A DNA stretch of 64,000 nucleotides from an uncultured Spirochaetales bacterium (GCA_964471825.1 CAYYKD010000003.1:69601-133600), one strand, 5' to 3'; counted from the stretch's first letter, positions 1 through 62,367 are shown. Program-made: numbers and translations. Notes: generated by a model not told the origin, from the letters alone.

Positions 1-1891
1 AAACTATGCATTTATTACCCAAAAAGAGCAACTCTCAAAAAACTGGTTGGGATTGTTAAAAAAACAAACTCTTAGAGCATTAAAAGAAACCAAAAGATGG
101 GCAGCTCATTATGGGGGTGCATTACGGATAAGAGCCAAATATCTTGCGCTTGTCGGTAAAAACAGCAAGGCAGACAAATACTTTAGGGCAAGCATCGTAC
201 ACACGGCAAAAATCGGACGCCGTTATGAAGAAGCTAAAAGCCGTTATGAGTATGGGTTATTCTTAAAAAAACTCTCGGAGCAAGACAGGATAAGCGTTAA
301 AAAGTCTAAAGAGTATCGCAAAGATGCCATAACAGAGTTAGAAAAAAGCTACACCATCTGCAAGGAGATCGGTGCTAAACAATATTTTAAACGGTGTACA
401 GAGGCACTTGGGGGAAGGGTTGAGCGGGAAGCATCTAATGCGGGTGAGGATATGCATACTGCTATGAAGTTTAAGGATATCCTAAAAATCCAGTCCTCCA
501 TACAGGAAGCATCCACAGTTGAAGAGGTGATCGAGGAGTTTGCACAGACCTTTATAAAAAGCACATTCTCTGAAAGGGTTGCTATCTTTCTTACAGACTC
601 AACCTCCGATAAACTCCGGTTTGTCAAAGGGATCGGCTTTACAGGTGCAAAAGATATCCCGTCGCAGATTATCGATACTGTTTCCTCCGGGCAGATGCCC
701 CTTATCTCAAACAATCTTCGGGAGAGTCGCTCATTTCAGTCAAAATACTTTGGTGGCTTTGAGTCAAAACACTTTGATCCACTCCCCAAATCCCTCATGG
801 CTGCACCGGTTGTTATCAAGGACTGGAATAAAACAATGGGAGTTATCTATATGGACTCCCACGCCACAGCTAACCTTTACACCGAAAAAGAGCAGGAAGA
901 TACCATCGAGCCGTTGGTTGCCTCAATTGCCGGATTATACAAAAAAGAGCGGATTAGTGCCTATTCAAACAAGGTTATGAATAACAGGATGGTAGAATGG
1001 ATTGTTGACCATGGAAACGATCCGTCTAAAATGACCTCTGTCAATCAAAACAACGCGGTAATGTTTACCGACATCAGAAGATTCACAGACCTTAGTGAAA
1101 AAATCGGTGATCCTGAAAAACTAACCGGTTTTTTAAACGCCTATTTTGAAGCAGTCTCTATGCCGATCTTTGAACTTGAAGACAAAAACTCTGCCCACAT
1201 AGATAAATATATCGGTGATGCAATGATGATCCTTTTTGATGATCCGCAAATCGCACTCTCAACAGCAGTTAAAATGCGTTCACAGGTTCATCTTTTCAAC
1301 ACCCAACGGGATAAGTTTTTAAAAAATGATTTTAAGTTTTATGATCCGGTTGATATGGGGGTAGGGCTTGCGTTTGGTCCTGTAACACTCGGTACTATGG
1401 GAACACCGCATTATCTGGATTTTACCTCGATTGGGGACACTGTAAATGTTGCATCCCGTATTGAGGGGGTAACCAAAGAATACCACGCTCCACTTATCAT
1501 AAATGATGAACTGTATAACAATATTGATAAAAACCTCTTCAACCTTCGGCTAATCGATAAGATCCGCGTCAAAGGGAAAGAAAAGCCGGTTAGCATATAT
1601 GAAGAGTTTAGCTCCAATAGCCCTCCGGTTAGGGATTTTAAGAATGCCGTTATGGATAGATACAACGAGCTGCAAGCGATCTATTTTTCAGGGAAAGATC
1701 TTGATAGCGGGATAAAACTTGCAGATGAACTCCTGGAATCAGCAAAAAAACTTGTGATCAAGCACAATCTCGGAACAGACTCACCGGCAGACTTTGTACC
1801 GTTTATCTACAAAGAACGGATGATCGAGTTACAAAACAATACGCATCTTTTAGAAAAGTGGGATGGTGTCTTTACATTTATGAAGAAGTAG
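1..1891 (+). CDS. Adenylate/guanylate cyclase (class III catalytic domain) with N-terminal TPR-like repeats and a GAF domain. The 5' end is probably truncated by the window edge (frame is open back to nt 2; the TTG at 47 is only the ORF-track start).
   Basis: Cyclase-homology motif AVMFTDIRRFTDLSEKIGD...YIGDAMMILF. GAF-like stretch AIFLTDSTSDKLRFVKGIGF. TPR-like N-terminus. No in-frame stop upstream to the window start. Confidence 0.7.
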   Translation, partial: NYAFITQKEQLSKNWLGLLKKQTLRALKETKRWAAHYGGALRIRAKYLALVGKNSKADKYFRASIVHTAKIGRRYEEAKSRYEYGLFLKKLSEQDRISVKKSKEYRKDAITELEKSYTICKEIGAKQYFKRCTEALGGRVEREASNAGEDMHTAMKFKDILKIQSSIQEASTVEEVIEEFAQTFIKSTFSERVAIFLTDSTSDKLRFVKGIGFTGAKDIPSQIIDTVSSGQMPLISNNLRESRSFQSKYFGGFESKHFDPLPKSLMAAPVVIKDWNKTMGVIYMDSHATANLYTEKEQEDTIEPLVASIAGLYKKERISAYSNKVMNNRMVEWIVDHGNDPSKMTSVNQNNAVMFTDIRRFTDLSEKIGDPEKLTGFLNAYFEAVSMPIFELEDKNSAHIDKYIGDAMMILFDDPQIALSTAVKMRSQVHLFNTQRDKFLKNDFKFYDPVDMGVGLAFGPVTLGTMGTPHYLDFTSIGDTVNVASRIEGVTKEYHAPLIINDELYNNIDKNLFNLRLIDKIRVKGKEKPVSIYEEFSSNSPPVRDFKNAVMDRYNELQAIYFSGKDLDSGIKLADELLESAKKLVIKHNLGTDSPADFVPFIYKERMIELQNNTHLLEKWDGVFTFMKK

Positions 1892-2133
1892 TTGAGGGTG
1901 TATGACGACTACTAAACCATTCAACCACTAAACTATTCAATTATCATAAGTGTACCGGCAAAGTAGGTTTTTCGAGATGTCTTATTACTTATGAAAATAC
2001 TACAGAATGCCGGAGTGATTTTCCATAAAATTGAATTTACACAAAATAGAATATTTTTCTTGACAATCTATATTTAAATATGGTTTATTGTTTTTGTAGA
2101 TAAGTCCTGTTGGTGTCAAAATAATTTTATTTA

Positions 2134-4068
2134 ATGGAGAATACTATGTATAATGACCTAAAAACCTTGGTAGATGTAATGTATAACTCAAAGAATCGAG
2201 TTGGAGAGAAAACTTTTCTTAAATACAGAGTTGATGAAAAATTTACTGATATTTCATACAACAAATTTGTTGAGATGGTTGAGGGATTGTCCGGATCACT
2301 CTACGAGGCGGGACTAAAAAAAGGTGATAGGGTGGGCATTATATCAGACAACCTCTATAAATGGCTTGTTGCGGATATGGCAATTCTCTCTCTTGGTGCA
2401 GCCGATGTTCCTAGAGGGTCAGACTCCACACCCCAGGAAGTTCAGTATATACTCAAACATTCAGGTGCGGTGTTCTGCTTTGTAGAGTCGCCAAAAGAGG
2501 CTGATATGATTATTTCATTTATCAGTGAGATCCCTGAATTAAAAAAGATAATCCTGTTAACCGGTTCAACTGAAGAGGTTAAAGGCAAACTGCCTTCTGG
2601 AATAGGTCTTACAACTTTTGATGAGTTGCTTAAAGATGGCTACAAACTGTATGAAAAAAACCGTAATGATATCGAGAAGATTAGAAATTCTATAAATAGC
2701 GATGATCTGGTTACTCTTATTTACACATCCGGCACAACAGGTGCTCCTAAGGGGGTTATGCTTACAAATAAGAATATAATGCATAATCTTCACTCGCTAC
2801 CGGACATTCTGCCTGTAACACATAAAGATAGATGGGTCTCTATACTACCGGTTTGGCATGTGTTTGAGAGAACTGTTGAATATTGTGTAATGATCACCGG
2901 TGGTCTGATGGCATATTCTAAGCCGGCAGCTAAATTTCTCCTTCCTGACCTGGAGGAAATCAAACCGACATTTATGGTCTCAGTTCCCAGAGTATGGCAG
3001 TCAGTCTATAATGGCGTTCTAGCAAAAGTTGATAAGGGTTCACCTGTAAAGAAGGGGCTTTTCTACGGATTTTTAAGCATTGGCAGTCTATTTATTAATC
3101 TGAAAAAAACTATTCTCAATCTTCATCCGAAATATAAAAAGGAATTTTTCCTATTAAGGTTGATTAAACTTCTATTTAGCCTTGTAGGGTTTATAGCTCT
3201 ACTTCCTCTATATGCACTTGGTGATCTTCTTGTATTCAGAAAGGTTAGAGCAAAGACGGGCGGTAAACTGATCGGCCCTATTTCAGGCGGAGGTGCATTA
3301 CCACCATATGTTGATCTATTCTTTGCAGTTATTGGTGTAGAGATAATTGAGGGCTACGGACTAACAGAGACCTCACCTGTAGTCGGGGTAAGAACATTCA
3401 GTACTAAGGTTCCTACAACTATCGGGCGGCCTATACCCGGCTGTCAGATTATGATAGGTGACGAGAACTTCAAACCTCTCCCATGCCAGCAGGATAAAGG
3501 GATTGTCTACATAAAAGGTGATCTTGTAATGGCCGGCTACTATAAAGCAGAAGATAAGACAAGGGCAGTTATAAATGATCAGGGCTGGTTTAATTCAGGA
3601 GATCTAGGTAGATTAACTATTTCTGGGGAACTTCATCTATGCGGCCGTGCCAAAGATACAATAGTTCTGATCGGTGGCGAAAACATCGAGCCTGAGCCGA
3701 TTGAGGCAAAAATACTTGAGGATCAGATGATTCATCAGGTAATAATCGCAGGACAGGATCAGAAAGTACTTAGTGCACTTATTTGCCCAAATGATGAAAG
3801 ACTGTTGGATTTTGCTAAATCTCATGGAATACAGGGCAATACTCGAGCAGAACTAATCAAGAACCCTAAGATTATTGAAGAATATGAACGGATTGCAAAA
3901 ACACAGTCAAGTCCAAAGAATGGATTTAAATCCTATGAAAGGGTACAGTTTATAACATTGTTAAATGAAAACTTCGAACTAGGCAAGGAGATGACAAACA
4001 GTCTTAAATTAAAAAGAAATGTTATCTTTGACAAGTATTCTAAAGAGATATCGGAGATGTACAAATAA
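2134..4068 (+). CDS. Long-chain-fatty-acid--CoA ligase (AMP-dependent synthetase/ligase family)
   Basis: AMP-binding signature LIYTSGTTGAPKGVMLTN. 644 aa. GGAG RBS 8 nt upstream of the ATG. Confidence 0.75.
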   Translation: MENTMYNDLKTLVDVMYNSKNRVGEKTFLKYRVDEKFTDISYNKFVEMVEGLSGSLYEAGLKKGDRVGIISDNLYKWLVADMAILSLGAADVPRGSDSTPQEVQYILKHSGAVFCFVESPKEADMIISFISEIPELKKIILLTGSTEEVKGKLPSGIGLTTFDELLKDGYKLYEKNRNDIEKIRNSINSDDLVTLIYTSGTTGAPKGVMLTNKNIMHNLHSLPDILPVTHKDRWVSILPVWHVFERTVEYCVMITGGLMAYSKPAAKFLLPDLEEIKPTFMVSVPRVWQSVYNGVLAKVDKGSPVKKGLFYGFLSIGSLFINLKKTILNLHPKYKKEFFLLRLIKLLFSLVGFIALLPLYALGDLLVFRKVRAKTGGKLIGPISGGGALPPYVDLFFAVIGVEIIEGYGLTETSPVVGVRTFSTKVPTTIGRPIPGCQIMIGDENFKPLPCQQDKGIVYIKGDLVMAGYYKAEDKTRAVINDQGWFNSGDLGRLTISGELHLCGRAKDTIVLIGGENIEPEPIEAKILEDQMIHQVIIAGQDQKVLSALICPNDERLLDFAKSHGIQGNTRAELIKNPKIIEEYERIAKTQSSPKNGFKSYERVQFITLLNENFELGKEMTNSLKLKRNVIFDKYSKEISEMYK

Positions 4069-5183: not shown

Positions 5184-5663
5184 ATGAACTCATTAACAAC
5201 ATATACAGAACATAAAGATTCAAGTATAGATATTCAAGCTGATCTAAACCAAGCTTTAATAAATGAAACTATGCTGAAAGGCAAGGTCATTGGAAACCTG
5301 ACAGCTAACAGGTATCAAGTAAACATAGAGAATGACTCCTGTAAATCGTGTTCATCATTTGGGCATAAATGTTCAACAGGCGGGTGCTTAATGACTGTAG
5401 TCTCGGAGGTCTTGTTAAATCCGGGCGATGCCGTTCTTGTTGAGAATAATCCTTCAAAGAATATCCTTGGGGCAGGCCTGTTATTTCTATTTCCATTGGT
5501 CTCATTGTTCTTAGTTTATTTTTTGACCGACATTGTTTTTAATAATCAAATAGCAGCCTCTGTTACTTCAGTTATTTCATTGTTACCGTCCTACTTCTTA
5601 GTGTATATCTTATCTAAAAAGTATTTCAATAAACTACCCGGAGCATACAAATCAGATGAATAG
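5184..5663 (+). CDS. RseC/MucC-family protein (SoxR-reducing system / sigma-E positive regulator-like), Cys-rich N-terminus plus two TM helices
   Basis: CKSCSSFGHKCSTGGC cysteine cluster followed by PGDAVLVE and a hydrophobic LLFLFPLVSLFLVYFL segment. The architecture matches RseC. Its last 8 nt overlap the RSH gene. Confidence 0.5.
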   Translation: MNSLTTYTEHKDSSIDIQADLNQALINETMLKGKVIGNLTANRYQVNIENDSCKSCSSFGHKCSTGGCLMTVVSEVLLNPGDAVLVENNPSKNILGAGLLFLFPLVSLFLVYFLTDIVFNNQIAASVTSVISLLPSYFLVYILSKKYFNKLPGAYKSDE

Positions 5664-7503
5664 TATAGGTGATCTCTTAAATGGTGAAAATGATCCGGTC
5701 AAACTACTCGAACTGCTAATGAGCAGGATAAATGGAATGGCTCAGGATGATATAGAATTGATAGTAAAGGCCTACAGGTTTGCTGAGGAAAGACACAGAG
5801 GTCAGGCAAGGGCATCAGGCGAACCGTTTATCATCCACCCCCTATCAGTAGCAATAAATCTCTCTGTTATGAATGTTGATAAGAATATGATAATAACAGG
5901 TCTACTTCATGATGTGGTTGAAGATACAGAGGTAACGCTTAATGACATCTCCGAGATGTTTGGAGCAGATGTCGCGTTTCTTGTCGATGGTGTTACAAAG
6001 ATAACTAAGCTAAAATCCTCGAATTCATTTGACGCAAAGGCTGAAACTATCAGAAAAATGCTTCTTGCAATGATTGGCGATCCAAGGGTTATAATTATCA
6101 AGTTTGCCGACAAGTTGCACAATATGCGAACCCTGGGATTTCTCAGAGAGGACAAACAGAGACGGATAGCAACAGAGACACTTGAAATATATGCACCGCT
6201 TGCCGGTAAGCTGGGATTGAACACAATTAAGACTGAGCTGGAGGATCTCTCATTTAAACACCTCTTTAGGGACTCCTATGAACTAATCGATGAGACACTT
6301 AAACAGTGGAGCGTTGAATGGGAAAGCAGTGATCAGATCGTTCAGAAAAAACTAAGAGAGAAACTTATAGATGGCCGTATCCCCTTTAAGATAAAATCAA
6401 GAAACAAACATTACTACTCAATATTCAATAAGATGAGAAAGTATAACAAAAAGATTGAAGAAATATTTGATCTCCATGGTCTAAGGATAATTACAGATAC
6501 GGTTGAGAATTGTTATCAGATATTCGGGCTTGTTCACAGTCTATGGCAGCCGATACCGGGGAGATTTAAGGACTACATTGCAAATCCCAAGGAAAACGGA
6601 TATAGATCACTTCATACTACGGTTCTACTTGATAAGCGAAAGGCCGTAGAGATTCAGATCAGAACTCAGGACATGGATGAGGTAAATGAGTACGGTATTG
6701 CGGCACACTGGTACTATAAGAAAGGGGAGTCTGCTGTTCAGAGAGAGCTTGACTGGTTGAACAAACTAAAGCAGGTTCATAATGAACAACTTAGCTCAGA
6801 GGAATACTACGAGCAAATAAGAGATGAGATCTTAAAGGATCAGATATTTGTCTTTACACCTAAGGGGGATCCAATCCAGCTGCCAAAGGGTGCTACTGCG
6901 ATCGATCTTGCCTATAGAATACATACTGACATAGGTAACCGATGTAAGGGTGCAAAGGGCAATGGGAAGATTATACCTCTTGATGCACCGCTAGAGAACG
7001 GTATGATTGTTGATATACTAACCACTAAGACACCTAATCCGCGAGAATCATGGCTCTCCTTTGTTAAGACCACACATGCCCAGAGAAAGATAAGGCATGA
7101 ACTTATTCGCTATAGTGAAAAAAATGGCTATAGCGACAAACATGATAGATCTGAAAAACCGGAAAAACCGGAAAAACCGGATAAAACAGATAAATCTGAT
7201 AAAAATGACAGACTTGACAAAACCCGAACAGACCGTGATGAGTCAAGACAGGGCAATAAGAGCACTAAGAAGACAATAAATGAAACAGGTCAAGATTCTA
7301 CCGGAAAATTCAAGATAGAGGTGTTCGGTGAAAAGAATGTACTCTTTGCAGTAGCAAACTGTTGCAATCCTGCCCCATCTGATGATTGCGTTGGGCTTGT
7401 TTCCAGAGGCAGAGGGATTATTATTCATAAAAGAGGGTGTTCAAATTTAAAAAATGTAAAGGATAGGGATCTCAGACTGCTCGAGATTAAATGGGGGAAA
7501 TAA
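5656..7503 (+). CDS. rel: Bifunctional (p)ppGpp synthetase/hydrolase (RelA/SpoT homologue, RSH) with a low-complexity insertion in the C-terminal linker
   Basis: HD hydrolase motif HPLSVA...LLHDVVEDT. Synthetase domain, TGS and C-terminal ACT-like region are present. The insertion EKPEKPEKPDKTDKSDKNDRLDKT is encoded by a tandem DNA repeat. Confidence 0.85.
   Translation: MNSIGDLLNGENDPVKLLELLMSRINGMAQDDIELIVKAYRFAEERHRGQARASGEPFIIHPLSVAINLSVMNVDKNMIITGLLHDVVEDTEVTLNDISEMFGADVAFLVDGVTKITKLKSSNSFDAKAETIRKMLLAMIGDPRVIIIKFADKLHNMRTLGFLREDKQRRIATETLEIYAPLAGKLGLNTIKTELEDLSFKHLFRDSYELIDETLKQWSVEWESSDQIVQKKLREKLIDGRIPFKIKSRNKHYYSIFNKMRKYNKKIEEIFDLHGLRIITDTVENCYQIFGLVHSLWQPIPGRFKDYIANPKENGYRSLHTTVLLDKRKAVEIQIRTQDMDEVNEYGIAAHWYYKKGESAVQRELDWLNKLKQVHNEQLSSEEYYEQIRDEILKDQIFVFTPKGDPIQLPKGATAIDLAYRIHTDIGNRCKGAKGNGKIIPLDAPLENGMIVDILTTKTPNPRESWLSFVKTTHAQRKIRHELIRYSEKNGYSDKHDRSEKPEKPEKPDKTDKSDKNDRLDKTRTDRDESRQGNKSTKKTINETGQDSTGKFKIEVFGEKNVLFAVANCCNPAPSDDCVGLVSRGRGIIIHKRGCSNLKNVKDRDLRLLEIKWGK
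7153..7225 (+). repeat. In-frame tandem repeat (gaaaaaccg x3 followed by gataaa-like units) inside the RSH gene, encoding (EKP)3 and a D/K-rich linker
   Basis: gaaaaaccg at 7153-7161, 7162-7170 and 7171-7179, read directly in the sequence. Confidence 0.8.
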
Positions 7504-48550: not shown

Positions 48551-49030
48551 CTAATTGTAGGCTATTTTTTTTATGATTGTAATAATCCTGTTGTTTATAT
48601 GATACTGTCCAGAAAACTTAAATTCTCCCATTTCAAGACATAATTTTAGTTTAACAGGTAATTCATTAATTTTTTTAATATATTCTTCCACCTTTTCTTT
48701 GATCTTAAGTAAAACGCTCTTGAAACGGCCACGCCAGACTGTACCGAATCGGTTAAATCTTCTGTTAAATCGAATTGAGAAGGACTGCTTAATCCATTGC
48801 ATTACAACTGATATATCTGTTTTACCGATTGTTTGAATTACTATCTGAAACTCATCTTTAAGAATGATGAAATTTTCAATTATAATATCGAATTTGATCA
48901 TTGCCTCTTCCATAACTTCCATAAAAATTGATTGTGTTTCTTCTGAGCAGAGTTTTTGAGCTGTTTCCGGAACAACGCTTGATTTTACAAAATATGTTCC
49001 GCCTTCTACTTTTTCTCGGTTTTTTCTCAT
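48551..49030 (-). CDS. IS200/IS605-family (Y1/HuH, RAYT-like) transposase homologue with HuH histidines substituted. Probably an inactivated or domesticated derivative.
   Basis: Alignable by eye to IS200 TnpA over its whole length: DIIIENFIILKDEFQIVIQ vs ...IIEMQTDKDHIHILAD (H-I-H replaced by E-F-Q), MQWIKQSFSIRFNRRF vs FIKTAKGRSSRILRQEF, TVWRGRF vs TLWTNSCF, and a retained Tyr in the C-terminal helix KVEEYIKKINE vs VVKQYIENQ. Confidence 0.5.
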   Translation of the reverse strand: MRKNREKVEGGTYFVKSSVVPETAQKLCSEETQSIFMEVMEEAMIKFDIIIENFIILKDEFQIVIQTIGKTDISVVMQWIKQSFSIRFNRRFNRFGTVWRGRFKSVLLKIKEKVEEYIKKINELPVKLKLCLEMGEFKFSGQYHINNRIITIIKKIAYN

Positions 49031-49389: not shown

Positions 49390-51381
49390 ATGGGAAACAA
49401 AAAGCTAAGCCGCTCACTATTACAGTACGATGTTATTACTCTTATTATGATCTATATTATTGTATTTCTAATGTTTGAGGTCTTAATAAAGAATCTTCTT
49501 GTCAATTATAAAGTTGATAGTCTAAACGAGAATCTTGTGTCGCTACAATTGGACTTCTTTGACGCTGTAACCTCACTTGAGGAGAAGTCAATTCTAAGTT
49601 ATGACGAATATATTAGAAATATTATCGACTATTCTAAAAGGTCAACACTCAGCAGACTGAAATATGATAACAGTATTGTTGCAATAGTATTTCCTGATGA
49701 GTATGGGTTAACCACATTTGGCTCAAAGAATAAGTTTGATAGAGTGTTAAACAAAGACAGCTATGGGTTAATCCATCGAGTTCTGTTTAACGGTGATTCA
49801 AATTCCAAGTATTCTTCAAACAAGGGCTCAAAAAACATAAAAAAAAGAGACAAATATATAGAGTTAAATGCTGACAGCTCAGAATATATTGCTATAGCTC
49901 AGATCTCAACGAAGGGGATAAAGTCTGGTTTGGAGCGTAATTCAGATGAGGATATTTACCCGATATTTATTGTTGGTGATAAAAGAGGCGATTTCTTTTA
50001 TATAATTAATCTGGCAGAGATAATATTTATATTCTGGCTTACTGTAGTATTTTTAATATTAGGTACCTTTAAGTTTCTTGCAACCAAGCGATCAACAGTA
50101 CAGATCTACGAATTCAGTAATATGTTGAATGAAGAATCTGAAAATATAACTCAGAAAGGTATAGTTGGCGGTTCATTAAGAAAGATAGAAACAGAGTTTG
50201 TTGAGATAGAGAATCTTAATACAGCATCAGCATCCCTAAGCAATTCCCTTAAAGAGTTAAGAAGAATAGTACAGGGTACAACTACAGAGGAATTTTTTAT
50301 AGGAACAATAACAAATAATAAGAGTATTACTGAACAGCATGATGTTTTTGTTACAGTTATGTTTCTCGATATAAAGGGATTTACGGGTATATCAGAGAAG
50401 CACAAATCAAATGCAATGGTTATTGGTAATACAATTTTTAGTCATGTAGGTAAGATAATCAAGGAACATGGAGGACAGATAAGAAAGCTCCTGGGTGATG
50501 CCGCACTAATAACATTTAAAAATCCACCCGACACCGGTTCAAATTCTGCACTAAATGCGGTTTCTGCCGGCATAAGGATACTAAACGATGTCTCTACGAT
50601 ATGTGACAAGCTTAATGAGTTATTTAACCCTGAAAAATCATCTGATCTCATGATAGATTTCAATTTTAGAATTGGGCTTGATTCGGGTACAATTGGAGAG
50701 GGGCTATACGGTACAGAGGATAATTTTGAGTATGGTATAATCGGTGATGCAGTGAATACGGCATCTAGATTTGAGTCATTAAACAAGCAGTACAATACAA
50801 ATATTTTAGTATCTGATAATACCTATAATGAACTTATAAGTGTGATTGTTTCAATATATGGTATAAAAAATGAGGCAAAATCCATAGAGACGAAGATCGC
50901 GGACACTCTAAAAGTGCGGTGGTTCTGTGTTGATACGGCCAGACCAAAGGGTAAGATTAAGCCAAATAAGATATACACGCTTTCCTATTTACAAAAAGAC
51001 AACCTAAGGTTGCTCGGACAAGGAGAATGCTTTAACATTGAGATTTTTGGAGGTTTCTCAGAACTGCTTGAAAGATTTCATCAGAGCATTCAACTATGGA
51101 AAAAAACAGTTGAACCGGAAAGTGATGCTGCTCTAGTAAACGCTGCTCTAGTAAATGCAAAAAAAGAATGGTCAAATATTGCAAAACATTTTGCTCAATA
51201 CATGATAGACAAAAACTTTAAAGTAGCAGAGCCGTTTCTAAAACTTATATTAAACTATCAGGAGTTCAATCGACTTCAAGCAGACTATGAAGGTTGGAAA
51301 GATAGGGAGATATATGACCTAAAAATTCCATCGTCTGATTGGATTAGCAACCCCTACGGATGCAGGGAGTTGGATAAATGA
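49390..51381 (+). CDS. Membrane-anchored class III adenylate/guanylate cyclase with periplasmic sensor region and ~190-aa C-terminal extension
   Basis: Two TM segments flank a ~170-aa extracytoplasmic region. Cyclase motif VFVTVMFLDIKGFTGISE...LGDAALITF...IGDAVNTASR. Confidence 0.75.
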   Translation: MGNKKLSRSLLQYDVITLIMIYIIVFLMFEVLIKNLLVNYKVDSLNENLVSLQLDFFDAVTSLEEKSILSYDEYIRNIIDYSKRSTLSRLKYDNSIVAIVFPDEYGLTTFGSKNKFDRVLNKDSYGLIHRVLFNGDSNSKYSSNKGSKNIKKRDKYIELNADSSEYIAIAQISTKGIKSGLERNSDEDIYPIFIVGDKRGDFFYIINLAEIIFIFWLTVVFLILGTFKFLATKRSTVQIYEFSNMLNEESENITQKGIVGGSLRKIETEFVEIENLNTASASLSNSLKELRRIVQGTTTEEFFIGTITNNKSITEQHDVFVTVMFLDIKGFTGISEKHKSNAMVIGNTIFSHVGKIIKEHGGQIRKLLGDAALITFKNPPDTGSNSALNAVSAGIRILNDVSTICDKLNELFNPEKSSDLMIDFNFRIGLDSGTIGEGLYGTEDNFEYGIIGDAVNTASRFESLNKQYNTNILVSDNTYNELISVIVSIYGIKNEAKSIETKIADTLKVRWFCVDTARPKGKIKPNKIYTLSYLQKDNLRLLGQGECFNIEIFGGFSELLERFHQSIQLWKKTVEPESDAALVNAALVNAKKEWSNIAKHFAQYMIDKNFKVAEPFLKLILNYQEFNRLQADYEGWKDREIYDLKIPSSDWISNPYGCRELDK

Positions 51382-52907
51382 TAAAAAAAATAATAAGTAA
51401 ATTTAAAAAGCTATCAACGATTCGGTTTGTAAAAGAGTCTCTCTATGGAATTGGAACAGTAGTTTTAATTGTCGCAATAATAGCCTCAATAACAGCATTA
51501 AAAGATAAAAAAAGTCTTATTGTGTTTGAGGATGAACAAAATATTCTGTCATTTTTGAATGATACAGAACGAAAACTTCTAATTGAAGAAAAATCAAAAC
51601 TCGAAAGTGAGTTAAAACTTTTGTATTCTCAAAGATTCAGCCATAGTTCGGCCCTGTCGCAGGAGGAGAAAAAAAGAATATCTGATAAAATTGCGGAAAT
51701 AGAAGAAAAAAAACGACAAAATGAAAGCAGCTATTCAAAAAACAAACAGGAGCTTGACACATTAAAGGCGAAAATGTCAAGTAGTGAAAACCTCCTCAAT
51801 GATATGCAGTTAATAATAAAAAAAACCTCGGATGAACTGGAAAAGGTAAAGAAAGAAAAAGATAATAGTGAGGTTTACTGGAAAAACTATAAGGATTTTT
51901 TAAAAAGCTCTGTAAAAAATGTAGCAGTCTCTACTAACAACGAGTCAAATCTAAATCGTGAGTTCGAAAACAGTGATGGAAAGTTCTTTATCGCCGGCCA
52001 ATTTCAAAAATTGCTTGATATTATCAAACAGTTGAATGAAGATAATAGTAAAAAATCGGCTAGAATTTTAGAACTCGAACAGAGTTTGATTGACGAGTCC
52101 GACTCTAATCGATTGAAGGAATCATCTGTTTCCTCAATAGTATCAATTGAATCACTTCAATCAATCAGAGCGGAAGAATATGAGCAAAATCAGAAGTCTA
52201 TTTCAAAACTTAATGCTGAGATTCTAGATAGAGATGCAGAGATTCTTCGTCTTAAAAATATTATTTTAAAAATAAATACAGAGAAGAGCAACCTTCAGAC
52301 AATACAGGAATCGCATGAAGAAGAGAAGCCCGTTATAGAGATAGATGACAAAGTATTAATACCCGAAAAAAACATTCAGAAAGATATGAATGAATTGGAT
52401 ATTGATTTCTGGAAAGAGAGGAAATACAGTTGGGTTTTTCCGTTGAAGGGCGGTTATGTCGATGATCCAGGTAATATTGAATCAAAATTCGGTTACGAAC
52501 GGCCGGACTCTAATGCATCAAATCCGGGTATATTTATCATTCCAAAGATTGCAAGCGGTGTAAAAGTGCTTTCAATGACTGACGGTGTTATTATAAACTA
52601 TTATTCCTATGTAGGCGGCACCTATGCAATGGAGATTAAGAACGACGATGGAACTATAGCCAGATATTGCTATATCAGCTCTTCGTTAAAGACCGGGACA
52701 AGAGTATCAAAAGCACAGGTTATTGGAATTGTTCTAAATGTAGGCAGTAGATATGGACTCCATATAGAGCTATACCAGGGCACTCTAGGGGGGGCTCTTT
52801 CAAATATAAATAATACTAAGTACAGGTTCGTGGAACCGAAAAACTATATGAGAAGAGGCGACCTTCAAGACCCCTCAGGTATAATGTATTTAAACATTAT
52901 CTATTGA
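51378..52907 (+). CDS. Membrane-anchored coiled-coil protein with C-terminal degenerate LytM/M23 domain (EnvC-like)
   Basis: N-terminal TM. ~300 aa of heptad-rich E/K sequence. C-terminal M23-like fold (GVKVLSMTDGVII...GLHIELYQG) lacking the HxxxD His and the first His of HxH. Start overlaps the cyclase stop (ATGA). Confidence 0.6.
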   Translation: MIKKIISKFKKLSTIRFVKESLYGIGTVVLIVAIIASITALKDKKSLIVFEDEQNILSFLNDTERKLLIEEKSKLESELKLLYSQRFSHSSALSQEEKKRISDKIAEIEEKKRQNESSYSKNKQELDTLKAKMSSSENLLNDMQLIIKKTSDELEKVKKEKDNSEVYWKNYKDFLKSSVKNVAVSTNNESNLNREFENSDGKFFIAGQFQKLLDIIKQLNEDNSKKSARILELEQSLIDESDSNRLKESSVSSIVSIESLQSIRAEEYEQNQKSISKLNAEILDRDAEILRLKNIILKINTEKSNLQTIQESHEEEKPVIEIDDKVLIPEKNIQKDMNELDIDFWKERKYSWVFPLKGGYVDDPGNIESKFGYERPDSNASNPGIFIIPKIASGVKVLSMTDGVIINYYSYVGGTYAMEIKNDDGTIARYCYISSSLKTGTRVSKAQVIGIVLNVGSRYGLHIELYQGTLGGALSNINNTKYRFVEPKNYMRRGDLQDPSGIMYLNIIY

Positions 52908-52964: not shown

Positions 52965-53225
52965 ATGCCATTTGTTTACATTGCAAGGTGTTCTGATGAT
53001 ACTCTATATACAGGGACAGCAGTTAATCTTGAGAAACGGATAATGACACACAATGCCGGAAAGGGTGCGAAATATACGAGAGGAAGGATACCTTTAACCG
53101 TTGTTTTTTCAGAGGAGTTTTCAACTCTGGGCGAGGCAATGAAAAGAGAGTCAATCATTAAAAAGATGAGCAGGAATGAAAAGATGCGAATGGCTGAAAT
53201 GCAGGGATCCGGCTTAATTATTTAA
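52965..53225 (+). CDS. GIY-YIG nuclease family protein (YhbQ-like)
   Basis: MPFVYIARCSDDTLYTGTAVNLEKRIMTHN matches the GIY-YIG N-terminus. The ORF track starts at TTG 52950, but the ATG at 52965 gives the canonical N-terminus. Confidence 0.7.
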   Translation: MPFVYIARCSDDTLYTGTAVNLEKRIMTHNAGKGAKYTRGRIPLTVVFSEEFSTLGEAMKRESIIKKMSRNEKMRMAEMQGSGLII

Positions 53226-54476
53226 TTTTTTTTTTGATGATGCGATCTGAGTCTCAATTATTTTCTTTATAGTGTCGGAAGATTCTCCTGTGTTTAACTT
53301 TTTGAAATAGTCCTCGTAGATCACAACTTTATTTCTACCCGATAGCTTTGCGTGATAGAGTGCCTTGTCAGCTCTGCTTAGTAAATCATTAGGGGTGATG
53401 TCCTCAGGATAGAACTCAGATATACCTACACTTATTGTTACTCTAATCTTATCACCGGCAGTATCCTTAATCTCATGGGATTCTATAGCTCTTCTGAGTC
53501 TCTCTGCAGGAATAACAGCATTGCGTGCATTAGTTTCCGGTAATAGAACAAGGAATTCTTCACCGCCATACCGTCCGACAGAGTCAACCTCCCTAAATAT
53601 CCTATGATTCTTTAGTATATCGCCAAATATTCTAAGAACATTATCGCCGACAAGGTGACCATGCAAGTCATTAATGTTCTTAAAAAAATCAATATCGATC
53701 ATTAACACAGAGAATACTCCGTAATGATCAAGAAAATTGCCAACGGATTGGTTATTCCCAAGTAATTCTGAGCATTTATCCGGGTTCTCTTCTTCGATTA
53801 CACTTTTAATACGCCAAAGATCACGCATTGTTCTCTTACTTTCATTCTCAAGTATCTCAACTATTGCTTTTCGATTTAGAATGTTGGTTAGGAAGTCTAT
53901 CTTGCTGATGTTAACGATGTTTTCATATAATTCCTGAATATTTTCTTTTTGCTGCTTAATCAACTCTGTATCAGCAATGTACTTAAATGATTCTACTATA
54001 TAGTTATTGATACGCCCCTCTGTTAGTATTTGACTATAGGCAGACACTAGAAATGAGGTTAGATTTATGATGTATGATATGTCACCTGGATTAGAGGGCA
54101 TAAAAAAAGTAAAATCCCTATCTGATATTATTTTATTAATTGATTGTTCAGACCCCTCTGTAGAGGTAAAGCAGTAAAGTATATGCGGTTTACTAATTTT
54201 ATGATGAGATATAAAATAACTGTGAATTTGATCCTTTCTAACGATGTTTATGAGTTCATGATTTATTGCTATTATTGTATTGCCGGAATATATACTGTCA
54301 TTAAGTTCATTTATAGTTCTTGATAACGATGAAAGATCAGTTAAAACAACTGATATCTCATTGCTATTTACTGCCTTAAAAAACTCACGGTAATTTTCAA
54401 ATAGATCGGTTAGAACGATTAAATATTTTTTCATAGAATAAAAAGTATAATATTTTAAGTATTTTGTAAATACCAT
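53214..54476 (-). CDS. GGDEF-domain diguanylate cyclase with N-terminal receiver-like/unknown domain
   Basis: Active-site GGEEF (RYGGEEFLVLLP) and upstream DxLT-like region. Converges on the GIY-YIG gene and overlaps it by 12 nt. Confidence 0.75.
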   Translation of the reverse strand: MVFTKYLKYYTFYSMKKYLIVLTDLFENYREFFKAVNSNEISVVLTDLSSLSRTINELNDSIYSGNTIIAINHELINIVRKDQIHSYFISHHKISKPHILYCFTSTEGSEQSINKIISDRDFTFFMPSNPGDISYIINLTSFLVSAYSQILTEGRINNYIVESFKYIADTELIKQQKENIQELYENIVNISKIDFLTNILNRKAIVEILENESKRTMRDLWRIKSVIEEENPDKCSELLGNNQSVGNFLDHYGVFSVLMIDIDFFKNINDLHGHLVGDNVLRIFGDILKNHRIFREVDSVGRYGGEEFLVLLPETNARNAVIPAERLRRAIESHEIKDTAGDKIRVTISVGISEFYPEDITPNDLLSRADKALYHAKLSGRNKVVIYEDYFKKLNTGESSDTIKKIIETQIASSKKKLNN

Positions 54477-54510: not shown

Positions 54511-55326
54511 ATGAAAATATCAATAATATTATTACTTACAATTTATTTTTTTAGCTGTTCCGGTCAACACAAAACCCTGGACATAGATCCACCCTCTGTA
54601 GGTTTTGTATTTGCCTCAGGGTACAATTGGGTTATTTCATTTGACGAACCTGTATCGTCTCTCAAGATCGAGTCTGAAAAAGCAGATAAGGTACTTCAAA
54701 TTAACCCGCTCTATCCACAGGCTAATTTTAGTATAGACTCGAGATATTTTCTAAATCACTCTATACCCGTTATCAATGAGAGTGTAAAGCTAAGGTTGAC
54801 ATCAGAGGACACAAGTAGTAATAGTTTAACAGAAGAATTAGTTTTTCCGCCAATCAATCAAAATCCTGCAGATATAAAGATCGTAAAGATAAATACAGTG
54901 AAGAGTGCTAAAAAATCACAATCAATAGTATTAGAAAAAAAACATGGATCACCTGTTGGATTTAAACTGAATCTCTTAAATCATACTTCAAATTGCGGGA
55001 TAGAACTTGAAAGTTATTTAACTGTAAATAAATCCTATGAGTTTAAATCATCCTCAAACTATAATAATTCTGAGATACGACTTACAGCAACATATGGATT
55101 GATATTTATAACAGATAACAATAGTGTAATAACGGATTATTATCTTTACTACGATAGCACAAAGAATGAGATTTCAAAATTGATTATACGAAAAAGATTT
55201 AAGGATTTTATAAGAATCCTACTTGATGGTGGCGTAGAGGAGGAGGAAATTATTATTCATGATATAAATAAAAAAGCGCCCTCTAAAGGACGCCTATTGG
55301 GACAGAAGGGACTCGAACCCTCATAG
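54511..55326 (+). CDS. Hypothetical lipoprotein
   Basis: Signal peptide with lipobox FFSC. The 3' end overlaps tRNA-Leu (opposite strand) by ~29 nt, so the true stop/extent is uncertain. Confidence 0.4.
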   Translation: MKISIILLLTIYFFSCSGQHKTLDIDPPSVGFVFASGYNWVISFDEPVSSLKIESEKADKVLQINPLYPQANFSIDSRYFLNHSIPVINESVKLRLTSEDTSSNSLTEELVFPPINQNPADIKIVKINTVKSAKKSQSIVLEKKHGSPVGFKLNLLNHTSNCGIELESYLTVNKSYEFKSSSNYNNSEIRLTATYGLIFITDNNSVITDYYLYYDSTKNEISKLIIRKRFKDFIRILLDGGVEEEEIIIHDINKKAPSKGRLLGQKGLEPS

Positions 55327-55381
55327 CGTTTCCGCCACAAACACCTCAAGCTTGCGTGTCTACCAATTTCACCACCATCCC
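55298..55381 (-). tRNA. tRNA-Leu (anticodon GAG) with long variable arm
   Basis: Reverse complement folds as acceptor GGGATGG/CTGTCCC (two G·U pairs), D-arm, anticodon stem CAAGC/GTTTG with loop TTGAGGT, long variable arm, T-arm GAGGG-TTCGAGT-CCCTT, and discriminator A. Confidence 0.7.
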
Positions 55382-55508: not shown

Positions 55509-57170
55509 TTAAACTATAAAGACACCCTGCCAGTCGGCTGGAGGCGGTTTTTTTAAAAACGCATCGCATCGTTGGATCATAACACTTGATGGGCCGTCAC
55601 CATTTAAGAGTGCAGAGGCAAACTCAAAGGAGGATCTGGCCTTGCCCCACTCTCTTCTCTGATATTTAGCAAAACCATCCTCATAGGTCTCGAGCATATC
55701 GAGAATTGCCTGGGAGACCTCGCCGTTTTTACCGACCAGTTCATATATCCTACCGCCTATAGTTTTACCTTTGACCTGAACTGTATCTATTAATCTGGTA
55801 ACAAATTTACTCCTGATGATAGAGTTAGTTGATTCACTGATGAGTATTCTGGTAGAATATATCTTGTTAAGTGACTCGAGCCTTGAAGACAGGTTCACAT
55901 TGTCTCCTAGTGTTGTATAGTTGAATCTTTCACTATAACCTATGTTACCAACAAAAACCTCACCGGTATTAATTCCAAATCGTGTAACAAATTCAGGATA
56001 ACCTTTTGGCATTATAAGTTTATTGAAATCCTCTTCAAAATGTTTGCAACTTAGAGCTGCATTTGCTGCAAGCTCAGCGTGGTTCTTCATTGTGATAGGA
56101 GCGTTCCAGAAAGCCATAACAGCATCACCGATATATTTGTCAACTGTTCCGTTATTGTCAATAATAGCTCTGGTAATACCCTCAAAATATCTTGACATTA
56201 CTGAGACAAGTTTTTCCGGCAATAGGCTCTCTGAAAGTGTTGTAAAATTTTGAATATCTGAAAACATAATTGTCAGCTCTTTCTTTTCTCCACCAAGGAT
56301 CGCCTCTTTATTATGATCAATCATACTTTTTACGATATCTGACGGGACATATTTAATAAATGATTTAAGACTGGTTTTCATATTTGACAATGCACTTTCT
56401 ACGCTCTCAATCTCTTTGAAAACAGATTTGTTATTTGAGCGATTTAACAATTTCAAGGACTTTATATTGTCAATATCAGCCTCAATGATCTTAAGTGGTG
56501 CGGATATACGAATTGAAAGATACATAGCCACAAGTATCGAAATTAATGAAACAAGACCTGAGATCAGAACAATGGAGAATAGTAGTCTGTTTTCGGTTGC
56601 AATAACATCGGAGGCGGAGATATCAGCTCCAACTACACCGGCAAACTCTCCCGAACTCGTAAATATTGGGGCATAACCTGATATCCAGGTTCCCCATTTA
56701 TCTGTTGAAAAACTATTCTCAATTATAACATTTTTTTTATTTTTAAAAACCTCTAAGAGTTCAGGTGTTGCATCACTATAGACATCTCCGGGGTGTGCAG
56801 CACTATCTATGTCGTTGTCAGAATCAAGAACAAAGTATATTTCATCTTTAAGATTGATATTCATTGTATAGAGGAATTTAATATCTCTTGTTTTCTCTTG
56901 GGCCTTGACTAAAATACTTCTCAACTTCTTATACTCGGATGAGGTCGTCCATGATGAATCTTTTATTCTACTATGCAGGTCACCGTCAATTAATAATGAT
57001 GCAGTGGCCACCGCATTGTATATCTGTTTTGCAAGTTCCTGCCTCAATGATTTTTTTACGCTTATATATGAGGAAGTGCTTAACGCAATAGAGGTTATTA
57101 ATATTAGTACAATAAAACATGACGAAATCCCTAAATTTATCGATAGAGTACCCAATTTCTTATTATTCAT
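55509..57170 (-). CDS. Membrane-anchored class III adenylate/guanylate cyclase with periplasmic Cache-like sensor, HAMP-like linker and conserved C-terminal tail
   Basis: TM, ~170-aa periplasmic domain, TM. Cyclase motifs LTIMFSDIQNFTTLSE...YIGDAVMAFW...LGDNVNLSSR. C-terminal ...PPADWQGVFIV. Confidence 0.8.
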   Translation of the reverse strand: MNNKKLGTLSINLGISSCFIVLILITSIALSTSSYISVKKSLRQELAKQIYNAVATASLLIDGDLHSRIKDSSWTTSSEYKKLRSILVKAQEKTRDIKFLYTMNINLKDEIYFVLDSDNDIDSAAHPGDVYSDATPELLEVFKNKKNVIIENSFSTDKWGTWISGYAPIFTSSGEFAGVVGADISASDVIATENRLLFSIVLISGLVSLISILVAMYLSIRISAPLKIIEADIDNIKSLKLLNRSNNKSVFKEIESVESALSNMKTSLKSFIKYVPSDIVKSMIDHNKEAILGGEKKELTIMFSDIQNFTTLSESLLPEKLVSVMSRYFEGITRAIIDNNGTVDKYIGDAVMAFWNAPITMKNHAELAANAALSCKHFEEDFNKLIMPKGYPEFVTRFGINTGEVFVGNIGYSERFNYTTLGDNVNLSSRLESLNKIYSTRILISESTNSIIRSKFVTRLIDTVQVKGKTIGGRIYELVGKNGEVSQAILDMLETYEDGFAKYQRREWGKARSSFEFASALLNGDGPSSVMIQRCDAFLKKPPPADWQGVFIV

Positions 57171-57821: not shown

Positions 57822-58085
57822 TTACTTTACGATCGGAACATCTTTCTCACTCAGCAAATAGTACTCATAATTCGGTATGTATTTTGCAGGAATGTTTTGT
57901 TCTATCAGATCCTTGATATTTGTAGGAATGTTCCAGTCATCGTTACCGTTGTAAAGAATTATCGGAAAAATATTTGGGAGCTGTCCCTTTTGAGAATTCC
58001 TGTATATCAAATCATAAAGACTCATAATATACAAAAATAGTCTAATAGGTATCGACTTGTCTGGTTTAGATTGAAATTCAAGCAA
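57822..58085 (-). pseudogene. Truncated Rpn-family (PD-(D/E)XK) transposase-like gene fragment, paralogous to the full gene at 9908-10795
   Basis: MLEFQSKPDKSIPIRLF...PIILYNGNDDWNIPTNIKDL parallels FILVEHKSYLPD...PIVFYHGTEKWDIPSEF of the full-length copy. An in-frame TGA lies immediately upstream with no ATG, and the fragment lacks the ~65-aa N-terminus and ~140-aa C-terminus. Confidence 0.55.
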
Positions 58086-58292
58086 AATGTATGTAATTAT
58101 TTCTTTATTATCAATATTTATTTTTCATAACAATGTAAGTATGATCGAATTTTATTTAAAAATCAACTCTTAATATCAAAACGGATTGTTGTATTCTACA
58201 AAACATTTATAAATTGTGAATGGGTATCAATTTTGCTGAGCTTTTTTGCTCTATCGGGAAAAATGCTTTATTTTTCTAAATAATGTTTCGAA

Positions 58293-59815: not shown

Positions 59816-60117
59816 TAATCTCTCCTTAAAGTATAATAGTCTTTAACCAAAATAATTAGGTATTTTACAACTTCTATCTGAAATAATCAAGAAAAAAAAT
59901 ATGAAATAAAAAATATGAAATAAATAATTAAACAGAGGCTATATAGGTGCAAATAGAATCTGCAAGACAGATATTATTTAACGAAATAAATATAGATTGA
60001 TAAATAATGCAAAAAAATATATATATATAGATATCTAAGAGTGTCTACACCTATAGTATTTTTTTAGCGATTGACGAGTTATTGTTTAGTTAATAAAAAA
60101 AGAGGAGCATAACCAGA

Positions 60118-62367
60118 GTGTTATTAAATAGCCCTATTACAACAGATAGAAACTATATTGTAATATCACCGGTAATATTTTTTTTCATATGGCTTCTATA
60201 TACAGGCGTCTCGGTAAATGCAGATGATAAGATCAAGTTTGCAGCAGGTACTTCAACTGTAGATCATAGCAACTTCAATTCCAAAGGAAGAGTCGATAGT
60301 AGAATAGTAATGGATCAGTTCTTAATGCTGGAGTCGGAGGTTTCAATTGCGGCTCACCTTGGGTTAGATGAGAATACGCCCGGCGTTGTCCGTTACAGGG
60401 GCGGTAAACTTCCTACGAATATTGGCCTAAGACAGCGGCAGTACTCCTTGAAGAGGACATTTAAACTATCAGAGAGCGATAGAGACAGATCATATTCTAT
60501 GTTCATGGGGTTGTCGGAGTATCCCTATAATGTCTATTTAAACAGAATTAAGATATTTACCAAGGGAAGGTTTACTGAGAGATACTACAACTCTAGCATG
60601 CGAGCTGTCTATGGGGTGTACCTTTCACCGGATATACTAAAGTATGGCGGTGAAAATGAGCTTGTATTAGAGATATTTCCAAGGACGGAGAGCTATGGAC
60701 TCGACAGGATCTATATTGATACAACAGATCGGGTGACGGGTGCAGTATTTGTCAGGAACTTTATTGGAATAAATCTTATCCAGGGTGGCTTTGTTCTTTC
60801 ATTATTTATTACTATCTACTTCTTGATCCTCTTCTTTGCTGAGAAGAGATCGAAAAATAAGAACCTTGTATTTGCACTTTTCTGCCTGTCATTTTTCTTT
60901 GCTACAATGGATATCGCCACGCATCATGATACAAATCTAGAATTTATGATGAATAACTTATCGAAATTCGGTCTGATACTATCGTCAGTGTTTATATGCA
61001 GCTTTTTTATGGAGTTCACACAGACATGGAACAAGGTTCGTCTTGTTAGAGTGATTATATATATATTTGGCTTGACTGCAGGGTTTGGGGCGCTATTTCA
61101 ACCTGACAAACCGTCACTAGAGATATGGTTTTCGTATTCAATTTTGCTGGTTATTATTCCGCTTATGATTCTATCTATGGTTGTTCTTGTTGTCGCATTT
61201 ATCAGAGATAGAAGTAAGAATGCATTGTTTTTACTAGGTTCATTTGTTATAATGGTCTGTGCAGTTTCGCACGATATTTCCTATCTGGTACGCTCCCAAT
61301 TGCCATTTGCATGGCTTACTACCTATGGGTATTTTGGCATTGTGATTACTGCATTTGCTTTGCTGGCACAGGAACAGGCTCTTAACTATCACAAATCAAT
61401 ACAGAGTGGAGTAGATCTGTTGATAGACCGTAACAGGATTAGAGCCTTAAATGAGGAGATAATAAAACAGAAGGATTCGTTTTTTCGTTTCGTACCAACT
61501 CAGTTTTTGGAACTTCTTGGCCATAAATCTGTTGTTGACATAAAGGCCGGGGATAGTTCGCTTCGTAAACTTACTGTCCTTTTTTCGGATATCCGTAATT
61601 TTACAACTATTTCTGAGGGCTTAATGCCGATTGAGATATTTGAATTTTTAAATAGCTACCTGTCTAGGATGGAAAATGCTGTCCTAAGAAATAACGGGTT
61701 TGTCGACAAATACATTGGGGACGCTATAATGGCCCTATACTCAAGTGAGAATGATACTGAAAATTCATGTGCGGATAATGCTCTTCGTTCTGTACTGATG
61801 ATCAACATAGAGCTTAGTGAGTTCAATAGATTTATCATATCTAAAGGGTTTTCTTCTGTAAATATCGGCATAGGGATAAACACCGGTGAGGTTACACTTG
61901 GGACTGTCGGCAGTGAGAATAGGCTCGATACAACTGTAATTGGCGATGCTGTAAACCTGGCCTCAAGGCTTGAAACACTTACAAAGCTCTATAGAACAAG
62001 GAATTTGGTCTCAGAGTATACTATAAACAATATCAAGAGCTCCGGGGAGTTTCACTTTCGAATGGTAGATTATCTCTCTGTACCCGGAAGAAAAGCACCT
62101 CTAAGAGTCTATGAACTTCTGGATCCGGTAATTGACAGGTTAAAATATGAGCAGTCTGATGAATTTAAAATTGCACAGACGCACTATCAGAACATGAATT
62201 TTGATGCAGCCATGAATTGTTTTAGGAAGATTAGCCATGAGAATCCTGATGACAATCTTCCTTTACTGTATATGCAGAGATGCAGCGAGCTGATGCAATA
62301 TATTCCTGATAACTGGGACGGGGTTTATAGGATAGACTCAAAAGATAACACCGGCATAAAGATATAA
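60118..62367 (+). CDS. 7TMR-DISM-type receptor adenylate/guanylate cyclase (extracellular domain, 7 TM helices, class III cyclase, conserved C-terminal tail)
   Basis: Signal peptide, ~180-aa extracellular domain, seven hydrophobic helices. Cyclase motifs LTVLFSDIRNFTTISEG...YIGDAIMALY...IGDAVNLASR. C-terminal ...IPDNWDGVYRI. RBS AGAGGAG then GTG start. Confidence 0.8.
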   Translation: MLLNSPITTDRNYIVISPVIFFFIWLLYTGVSVNADDKIKFAAGTSTVDHSNFNSKGRVDSRIVMDQFLMLESEVSIAAHLGLDENTPGVVRYRGGKLPTNIGLRQRQYSLKRTFKLSESDRDRSYSMFMGLSEYPYNVYLNRIKIFTKGRFTERYYNSSMRAVYGVYLSPDILKYGGENELVLEIFPRTESYGLDRIYIDTTDRVTGAVFVRNFIGINLIQGGFVLSLFITIYFLILFFAEKRSKNKNLVFALFCLSFFFATMDIATHHDTNLEFMMNNLSKFGLILSSVFICSFFMEFTQTWNKVRLVRVIIYIFGLTAGFGALFQPDKPSLEIWFSYSILLVIIPLMILSMVVLVVAFIRDRSKNALFLLGSFVIMVCAVSHDISYLVRSQLPFAWLTTYGYFGIVITAFALLAQEQALNYHKSIQSGVDLLIDRNRIRALNEEIIKQKDSFFRFVPTQFLELLGHKSVVDIKAGDSSLRKLTVLFSDIRNFTTISEGLMPIEIFEFLNSYLSRMENAVLRNNGFVDKYIGDAIMALYSSENDTENSCADNALRSVLMINIELSEFNRFIISKGFSSVNIGIGINTGEVTLGTVGSENRLDTTVIGDAVNLASRLETLTKLYRTRNLVSEYTINNIKSSGEFHFRMVDYLSVPGRKAPLRVYELLDPVIDRLKYEQSDEFKIAQTHYQNMNFDAAMNCFRKISHENPDDNLPLLYMQRCSELMQYIPDNWDGVYRIDSKDNTGIKI

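Follow-up and report, generated by a model that had tools for sequence, protein, structure and literature searches.

A conserved TPR-like module at the C terminus of class III cyclases from an uncultured Spirochaetales bacterium and from other bacterial phyla

Analysis of a 64,000-nucleotide stretch of DNA from an uncultured Spirochaetales bacterium (GCA_964471825.1, CAYYKD010000003.1:69601-133600; hereafter, the window) revealed that three of its four class III cyclases, P1, P3, and P4, end in a common module located downstream of the catalytic domain, which is lacking in the fourth, P2. This module of 70 to 90 amino acids (aa), referred to below as the tail, comprises one TPR repeat and a capping helix that bears a conserved R-C pair, followed by a PPxxDWDGVxxxxxK segment at the extreme C terminus. 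It is real, shared, and apparently uncharacterized in the resources that we searched, and it is pan-bacterial rather than peculiar to these paralogues or to this lineage. A first-pass annotation of the window had proposed a shared interaction or regulatory role for the tail, which is plausible. The account that we favor, with moderate confidence, is that of an accessory domain predicted to dock in cis and to expose a TPR-type interaction surface.

Class III cyclases are the main producers of cyclic AMP (cAMP) in bacteria, and some genomes encode dozens. Studies of how they are regulated have centered on what precedes the catalytic domain: the sensors, the HAMP domains, and the transducer helices. 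A large proportion of class III cyclases additionally bear a conserved domain after the catalytic one, for which the resources searched gave no name, structure, or assigned function.

Cyclases of the window and their C termini

The four open reading frames (ORFs) scored above the gathering cutoff of PF00211 (21.9 bits) in a Pfam scan, with 53.0, 62.4, 81.4, and 74.0 bits for P1, P2, P3, and P4, respectively (E values of 4e-14, 5e-17, 8e-23, and 1.5e-20), in agreement with the four class III cyclases counted initially. Columns D6, K51, D55, N131, and R135 were invariant in a four-way alignment of these proteins; by what is established for class III enzymes, we take them to be the two metal-binding Asp residues, the Lys that contacts the substrate, and the Asn and Arg of the transition state. 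Class IIIb enzymes are marked by Thr in place of Asp at the second of the positions that define the substrate (T-x-x-G-D). By eye, this position is occupied by Thr in P1 (FTSIGD), P3 (YTTLGD), and P4 (TTVIGD) and by Gly in P2 (YGIIGD). By inspection, P1, P3, and P4 would be class IIIb-like adenylate cyclases. The four genes are ordinary members of the large class III family, and P1 is 100% identical to a database protein (P0271) from a JGI metagenome contig.

Of the sensor types first assigned to these proteins, 7TMR-DISM was confirmed in P4, in which it was supported by a match to PF07695 (7TMR-DISM_7TM; residues 220 to 415, E = 2.8e-10, 40.9 bits for a cutoff of 29) and six hydrophobic segments were detected. 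Pfam searches (E ≤ 0.1) did not support the TPR and GAF domains proposed for P1 or the Cache-like and HAMP domains proposed for P3. Hydrophobic segments are present at residues 5 to 23 and 189 to 226 of P3, and such segments border a presumed extracytoplasmic stretch in both P2 and P3, as expected of membrane sensors. The scan for hydrophobic segments found no transmembrane segment in the ORF of P1, which is cut at its 5′ end.

The tail module was defined by two alignments (A3 and A2), and the P1 subfamily, whose tails keep this layout apart from R-M at the R-C site and ~13 inserted residues, was represented by an alignment of 12 sequences (A5). A hidden Markov model (HMM) of 72 positions was built from the tails of the best 120 of the 5258 matches to the cyclase and tail of P3 in a protein collection and was then used to search all of the stop-to-stop ORFs in the window. 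This tail HMM matched P3 (76.8 bits, E = 5e-23, model positions 3 to 68) and P4 (51.3 bits, E = 4e-15, model positions 8 to 72). P1 gave only a weak match (E = 0.07 with the entire ORF and domain E = 0.5 for the C-terminal 37 residues), in the same register and at the C terminus. Comparison of A5 with the canonical tails by hhalign gave a probability of 98.2% (E = 5e-14) over 64 columns. Neither P2 nor any other ORF of the window besides P1, P3, and P4 was matched by the tail HMM. Thus, the claim that three of the four cyclases share a C-terminal tail was borne out by the tail HMM for P3 and P4 and by hhalign for P1; the C-terminal strings cited in its support were found exactly as written, and the conservation spans ~70 residues rather than the W-x-G-V string. 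The sites of the conserved Arg and Trp read QRC and DWQGV in P3, QRC and NWDGV in P4, and ERM and KWDGV in P1. In A5, the Cys is replaced by an invariant Met throughout the P1 subfamily, and the C terminus reads W-D-G-V-Y-T-F-x-x-K.

It is extremely improbable that the resemblance results from chance occurrence of a short motif or from a recent duplication within the genome. The weak score of P1 against the canonical tail HMM and the presence of four cyclase genes within a single 64-kb window would fit such an origin, but the E values obtained for P3 and P4, the hhalign result for the P1 subfamily, and the occurrence of the module in more than 15 phyla (see below) are at odds with it. In addition, P3 and P4 display only 36% identity over the cyclase and tail, versus up to 50% identity between P3 and homologues from unrelated metagenomes, which makes their common tail an ancient trait of the family and not the product of local duplication. 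Chance and recent duplication were ruled out on the basis of these E values, the hhalign comparison, the identities, and the phylum spread.

P2 ends in a different C-terminal extension of ~130 aa, into which only two database homologues reach, one fully and the other partly. The possibility that this extension is a degenerate copy of the module, with PSSDW and a terminal K as remnants, was rejected, as hhalign aligned 8 columns only (probability of 1.2%); the probabilities for the extension against the module profiles were 1.2% and 0.4%. The tail was present in just 12 of the 120 cyclases retrieved with P2 and is thus not universal. The stop codon of P2 overlaps the start of a gene encoding an M23 peptidase domain, and the two genes are probably cotranscribed. 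M23 peptidases are known partners of bactofilins in other bacteria, according to published work.

Conservation, predicted structure, and distribution of the tail

Since the pattern used for scanning genomes imposes PPxxDW[DQE]GV, the extent of conservation was assessed in the set of the best 120 homologues of P3. The tail ran to the end of the protein in all 120 of them, with query coverage, tail included, of 98 to 100% for 118 proteins and 92 to 93% for the other two. The consensus is ...Y..G...Y..R.W..A...F......P.D.PS.....RC..F...PP..DWDGV.....K-stop. The Trp was found in 119 of the 120 proteins, the terminal Lys, located five residues past W-x-G-V-x, in 115, and the R-C pair in 102. In an alignment of 106 rows, R236 and W249 were invariant, and Y205, A213, D227, P245, and G251 were conserved in at least 95% of the rows. 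Such extreme conservation of the Arg, the Trp, and the Lys at the C terminus is suggestive of a specific contact with the catalytic core or else of a shared partner.

We also considered that the tail might be a small sensor that uses the Cys of the R-C pair to detect redox conditions or a metal, or that binds a small ligand, and that tunes the cyclase independently of the N-terminal sensor. Such a role would account for the presence, in 83% of the sequences, of a Cys next to the invariant Arg and for the high conservation of the Trp, the Asp, and the terminal Lys, which have no obvious catalytic role. However, the Cys is single, with neither a second ligand nor a Cys pair, it is missing from ~15% of the canonical tails in addition to being replaced by Met in the P1 subfamily, and the tail is a plain TPR unit devoid of pocket-forming elements. 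Because whole subfamilies replace the conserved Cys, we consider a redox or ligand-binding role very unlikely.

A single TPR repeat makes up the first 30 to 40 residues of the tail. The tail profile matched consensus TPR proteins in the PDB, TPR_2 or related families matched 26 of 47 homologous tails (best E value of 1.5e-6), and the helix-turn-helix fold superposes on solved TPR proteins, with peptide-binding TPR domains as its structural neighbors. None of the tails of the window reached the gathering threshold of a TPR family in Pfam, and the only match at E ≤ 0.1 was to ANAPC3, in P4 (E = 0.071). A free-standing Leptospira protein consisting of the module scored 33.1 bits against Pfam TPR (cutoff of 27). 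Pfam and NCBIfam scans did not reveal any dedicated family for the tail. Its description as an uncharacterized module was therefore correct with respect to the lack of a dedicated family or structure but went too far in one respect, since the recognizable TPR repeat of the first half leaves the module only partly undefined. In comparison to the peptide-binding domains of the TPR_1/TPR_2 type (Hop TPR1, PP5, Tom70, and the designed CTPR proteins), the tail has a single repeat followed by a capping helix in place of the three or more repeats usual in functional TPR domains, and the generic TPR families do not model its PPxxDWDGVxxxxxK end.

An AlphaFold model of the cyclase and tail of P3, in which residue 1 corresponds to residue 299 of the protein, had a predicted local distance difference test (pLDDT) score of 96.9 and a predicted template modeling (pTM) score of 0.92, with no low-confidence segment. 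The tail consisted of helices at positions 189 to 206, 210 to 223, and 228 to 242, followed by its sole strand, a strand or bridge at positions 253 and 254, all at pLDDT > 90. The tail modeled alone had an overall pLDDT score of 94.5; its last 10 residues scored 86, and positions 253 and 254, although still confident, were not assigned to a strand. Reading the docking from pLDDT, pTM, and the secondary-structure assignment of the model, the tail is predicted to fold alone and to sit rigidly on its own catalytic domain.

With the cyclase and tail of P3 as the query, Pseudomonas aeruginosa CyaB (3r5g) ranked first in the PDB both by sequence (E = 1e-26) and by fold. The catalytic core is similar to those of CyaB (34% identity and a root mean square deviation of 2.2 Å over 193 columns) and Spirulina CyaC (1wc0), but solved cyclase chains of this type end before the tail, with template modeling scores on the query of ≤0.68.

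The first-pass annotation left to be checked whether the tail is confined to the lineage of the window; it is not. A pattern derived from 8 close tail rows was used to scan one genome per GTDB species and identified at least 508 confirmed loci in more than 15 phyla. The 80 loci that were kept from these belong to the Chloroflexota, Planctomycetota, Nitrospinota, Nitrospirota, Myxococcota, Bdellovibrionota, Desulfobacterota, Verrucomicrobiota, Acidobacteriota, Gemmatimonadota, Elusimicrobiota, Bacteroidota, Calditrichota, Latescibacterota, and Spirochaetota and to the Alpha-, Beta-, and Gammaproteobacteria. In 70 of 81 loci, the tail HMM ran exactly to the stop, and in another 9 it ended one residue earlier. 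PF00211 was found directly upstream of the tail in 50 of the 51 long tail-bearing ORFs sampled. The sensors present in these 51 ORFs were CHASE2 (n = 33), GAF/PAS (n = 12), HAMP (n = 3), and dCache (n = 2), so that, with the 7TMR-DISM of P4, the tail does sit behind unrelated sensors, as proposed. In P0185 (783 aa), two cyclase domains (residues 208 to 382 and 527 to 710) are each followed by a tail (residues 389 to 455 and 716 to 782), indicating that each catalytic domain has its own tail and that the module can be internal.

A profile search of 1.84 billion representatives returned 25,196 matches at E ≤ 0.001, the top rows of which were mostly multirepeat TPR proteins, so that this number has no census value. 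The informative matches were those confined to a single stretch at protein ends, those to stand-alone proteins, and the single tandem. A tblastn search of plasmids with a 75-aa tail found nothing at E ≤ 1e-5. With a full-length query comprising CHASE2, cyclase, and tail, the match to Sinorhizobium meliloti cyaK ended before the tail; this genetically studied gene seems not to carry the module. The tail-bearing plasmid relatives are named only "adenylate/guanylate cyclase domain-containing protein" in RefSeq. The domain merits a name, and defining it in the manner of Pfam would allow thousands of proteins to be annotated better.

Several known systems offer points of comparison. Anabaena CyaB1-type cyclases (GAF-GAF-PAS) are said to possess a "TPR-like" C-terminal region, which our literature search did not confirm. 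Twelve of the 51 tail-bearing proteins sampled carry GAF and PAS ahead of the cyclase, and the tail presumably corresponds to this informally noted region. The window proteins have other sensors (7TMR-DISM, membrane sensors without a Pfam match, and a soluble N terminus). Rv0386-type mycobacterial cyclases have a C-terminal region of hundreds of residues containing an ATPase, TPR, and helix-turn-helix region. They likewise have TPR-type helices after the cyclase domain, but the tail described here consists of one repeat unit of ~70 aa and nothing else, in contrast to the NTPase and DNA-binding domain of the mycobacterial proteins. Mammalian adenylyl cyclases have a C2b extension, and that of AC9 reportedly occludes the active site. 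A postcatalytic segment that folds back and tunes activity is a possible shared principle; however, C2b has no kinship in sequence or fold with the bacterial tail, a predicted folded TPR-like domain. Literature searches on TPR-like cyclase C termini, DWDGV, CHASE2 cyclases, and Leptospira cyclases, with key subscription reviews outside reach, found no description of the tail and no functional or structural study of it.

Candidate roles and free-standing copies

If the tail is docked in cis, as we favor, the chain would continue from the final strand of the catalytic core into the three-helix unit and bridge back through its final residues onto a β-strand of the core. The tail would act as a clamp or cap that stabilizes or tunes the catalytic domain or its dimer, and the concave TPR face may, together with the conserved Arg and Trp residues and the terminal Lys, form a common docking surface for a sensor-independent partner. 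Each catalytic domain would bear one module in a fixed predicted orientation, whatever the sensor located upstream. The module is an output-side accessory of many cyclases, not a signal-specific device of this genome. If the tail clamps the core or docks a common partner, this would amount to an output-side layer of control operating across cyclases with very different sensors.

Several observations weigh against this account. Among the 120 cyclases retrieved with P1, 33 (P0283 to P0293 and others) have a shortened tail consisting of the TPR repeat and the R-C helix without DWDGV...K, indicating that the terminal segment is separable from the helical part. P1 (…WDGVFTFMKK) ends with the consensus Lys. 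P3 (…WQGVFIV; 55512-55532) ends three residues before it, with no in-frame Lys codon further downstream, and P4 retains it but has seven additional residues (DNTGIKI; 62344-62364); the exact C terminus is thus not essential in every member. PDB sequence and fold searches returned no solved structure that includes the tail, the matches stopping at positions ~190 to 194 of 255 columns. Finally, the module also exists without a cyclase. It was found at ~24 loci as a separate protein of 73 to 75 aa that has a Met of its own and lacks an upstream cyclase ORF, in Leptospira, other Leptospiraceae, Turneriella, Brevinematales, and Spirochaetales. These proteins keep all of the conserved residues of the module, and stand-alone proteins of 73 to 79 aa were also recovered in the unbiased profile search of the representatives. 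The free-standing copies show that the module can work as an independent unit. They imply that it does not need a covalent link to a cyclase, which accords no less well with partner binding than with a structural cap.

In 24 of the free-standing loci, the module gene is directly followed by a bactofilin gene (PF04519, E = 2.6e-29). One of these loci, L063, from a metagenome-assembled genome of the Leptospiraceae, looks like a split cyclase and tail joined to the bactofilin pair: the module gene is located 77 nucleotides (nt) after the gene for a tail-less GAF-cyclase and overlaps the bactofilin gene by 4 nt. In Leptospira, acpS is located directly upstream of the free-standing module gene.

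This gene order underlies the main rival account, which we rate as fairly unlikely and in which the primary function of the tail is to bind a partner. The tail would be a trans-acting adaptor that recruits the cyclase to a common partner or is regulated by it, this partner being the bactofilin scaffold in spirochetes. Synthesis of cAMP would be spatially organized, and the free-standing form would compete for this contact, mimic it, or supply the module to tail-less cyclases. The free-standing proteins, the adjacent bactofilin genes, and the arrangement of L063 are all in keeping with an adaptor, as are the confident fold predicted for the isolated module and the peptide-binding domains found among its structural neighbors, TPR units being typical protein-binding modules. 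However, the link to bactofilin is one of gene order and was seen for the free-standing form only, in a single phylum. No bactofilin gene was found beside the 51 fused cyclase genes, the ORFs of the window include neither a bactofilin nor a free-standing module, and the high pTM score of the fused model favors a fixed contact in cis. The spirochete bactofilin literature that we searched mentions no TPR partner, and no pairing of tail and bactofilin genes was described in the literature searched, which did not extend to key subscription reviews.

A further elaboration of the adaptor account, in which the module links cyclases to a scaffold, is speculative. The module would be a portable docking unit tying cAMP synthesis to the cytoskeleton or to a shared scaffold; the separate 74-aa protein would be cotranscribed and, in places, translationally coupled with bactofilin, and the DWDGV...K end would bind bactofilin or tail-less cyclases in trans. 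We hold this to be quite improbable; if it were true, a single common partner would position or gate the hundreds of sensor-diverse cyclases that carry the module. The free-standing copies located beside bactofilin genes provide an experimental entry point in Leptospira. The value of the present analysis lies in the definition of the domain and in this spirochete bactofilin lead; it is modest for the window itself.

Feature coordinates and other genes of the window

The positions of the cyclases, of their domains, and of the other features are collected in Table 1. The inventory of signaling proteins initially drawn up for the window comprised one GGDEF protein, one HD-GYP protein, and three PAS kinases. 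The GGDEF and HD-GYP proteins and two of the kinases were recovered, but the third candidate kinase is a PAS-GAF-PAS protein with no kinase domain before the end of the window.

Table 1. Coordinates of features in the window and in loci with a free-standing module
Feature	Position	Strand	Family or remark
P1, class III cyclase, 5′ end cut by window start	2..1891 (ORF 2-1888)	+	PF00211
P1 cyclase-homology domain	1046..1588	+	PF00211, residues 349-529
P1 tail, divergent variant	1613..1888	+	TPR-like helix pair, insertion of ~13 aa, R-M for R-C, WDGVFTFMKK at stop
RelA/SpoT enzyme	5656-7500
YhgA-like transposase-related ORF	9911-10795	-	PF04754
PAS hybrid histidine kinase, complete	10982-14272
Biotin synthesis genes (BioB-, BioA-, and BioF-like)	19089-22637	-	Adjoining Rnf operon
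Rnf-type operon, complete	22644-27947	-	RnfC, D, G, E, A, and B homologues
HD-GYP protein	29350-31185	+	HD and HHEKWNGHGYP motifs
PAS hybrid histidine kinase, complete	34949-37096
IS200-like transposase-related ORF	48554-49030	-	PF01797
P2, membrane cyclase with different C-terminal extension	49390..51381 (ORF 49390-51378)	+	PF00211
P2 C-terminal extension	50980-51381		Start position approximate
M23 peptidase domain gene	51378-52907
GGDEF protein	53217-54476	-	GGEEF motif
271-aa ORF	54511-55326	+	No Pfam match
tRNA-Leu(GAG)	55298-55381	-
P3, membrane cyclase with canonical tail	55509..57170 (ORF 55512-57170)	-	PF00211
P3 tail	55512..55721	-	Residues 484-553; three helices, then PPPADWQGVFIV
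P3 cyclase-homology domain	55764..56285	-	PF00211
YhgA-like fragment, short	57825-58124	-	By eye; between P3 and aminotransferase gene
P4, 7TMR-DISM cyclase with canonical tail	60118..62367 (ORF 60118-62364)	+	PF07695, PF00211
P4 cyclase-homology domain	61564..62112	+	PF00211
P4 tail	62134..62364	+	Residues 673-749; TPR repeat, MQRC helix, IPDNWDGVYRIDSK, extra DNTGIKI
PAS-GAF-PAS protein	62533 to window end		Cut ahead of any visible kinase domain
Leptospira yanagawae (L033), module	2495-2719		Position within locus
Leptospira yanagawae (L033), bactofilin	2725-3093		Position within locus
L063, tail-less GAF-cyclase	954-2420		Position within locus
L063, module	2498-2719		Position within locus
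L063, bactofilin	2716-3087		Position within locus
L063, STAS-like	3214-3549		Position within locus; by eye
Module and bactofilin pair, other loci			L006, L007, L009, L010, L014, L016, L018, L021, L035, L038, L042, L045, L046, L053, L058, L061, L066, L069, L073, L075, L079

The 271-aa ORF overlaps the tRNA-Leu(GAG) gene by 29 nt and may be shorter than listed, or spurious. Transposase-related ORFs are located near the cyclase genes, and the housekeeping genes interspersed among the signaling genes include the Rnf operon, the biotin genes, and genes for MurJ and an ABC-F ATPase.

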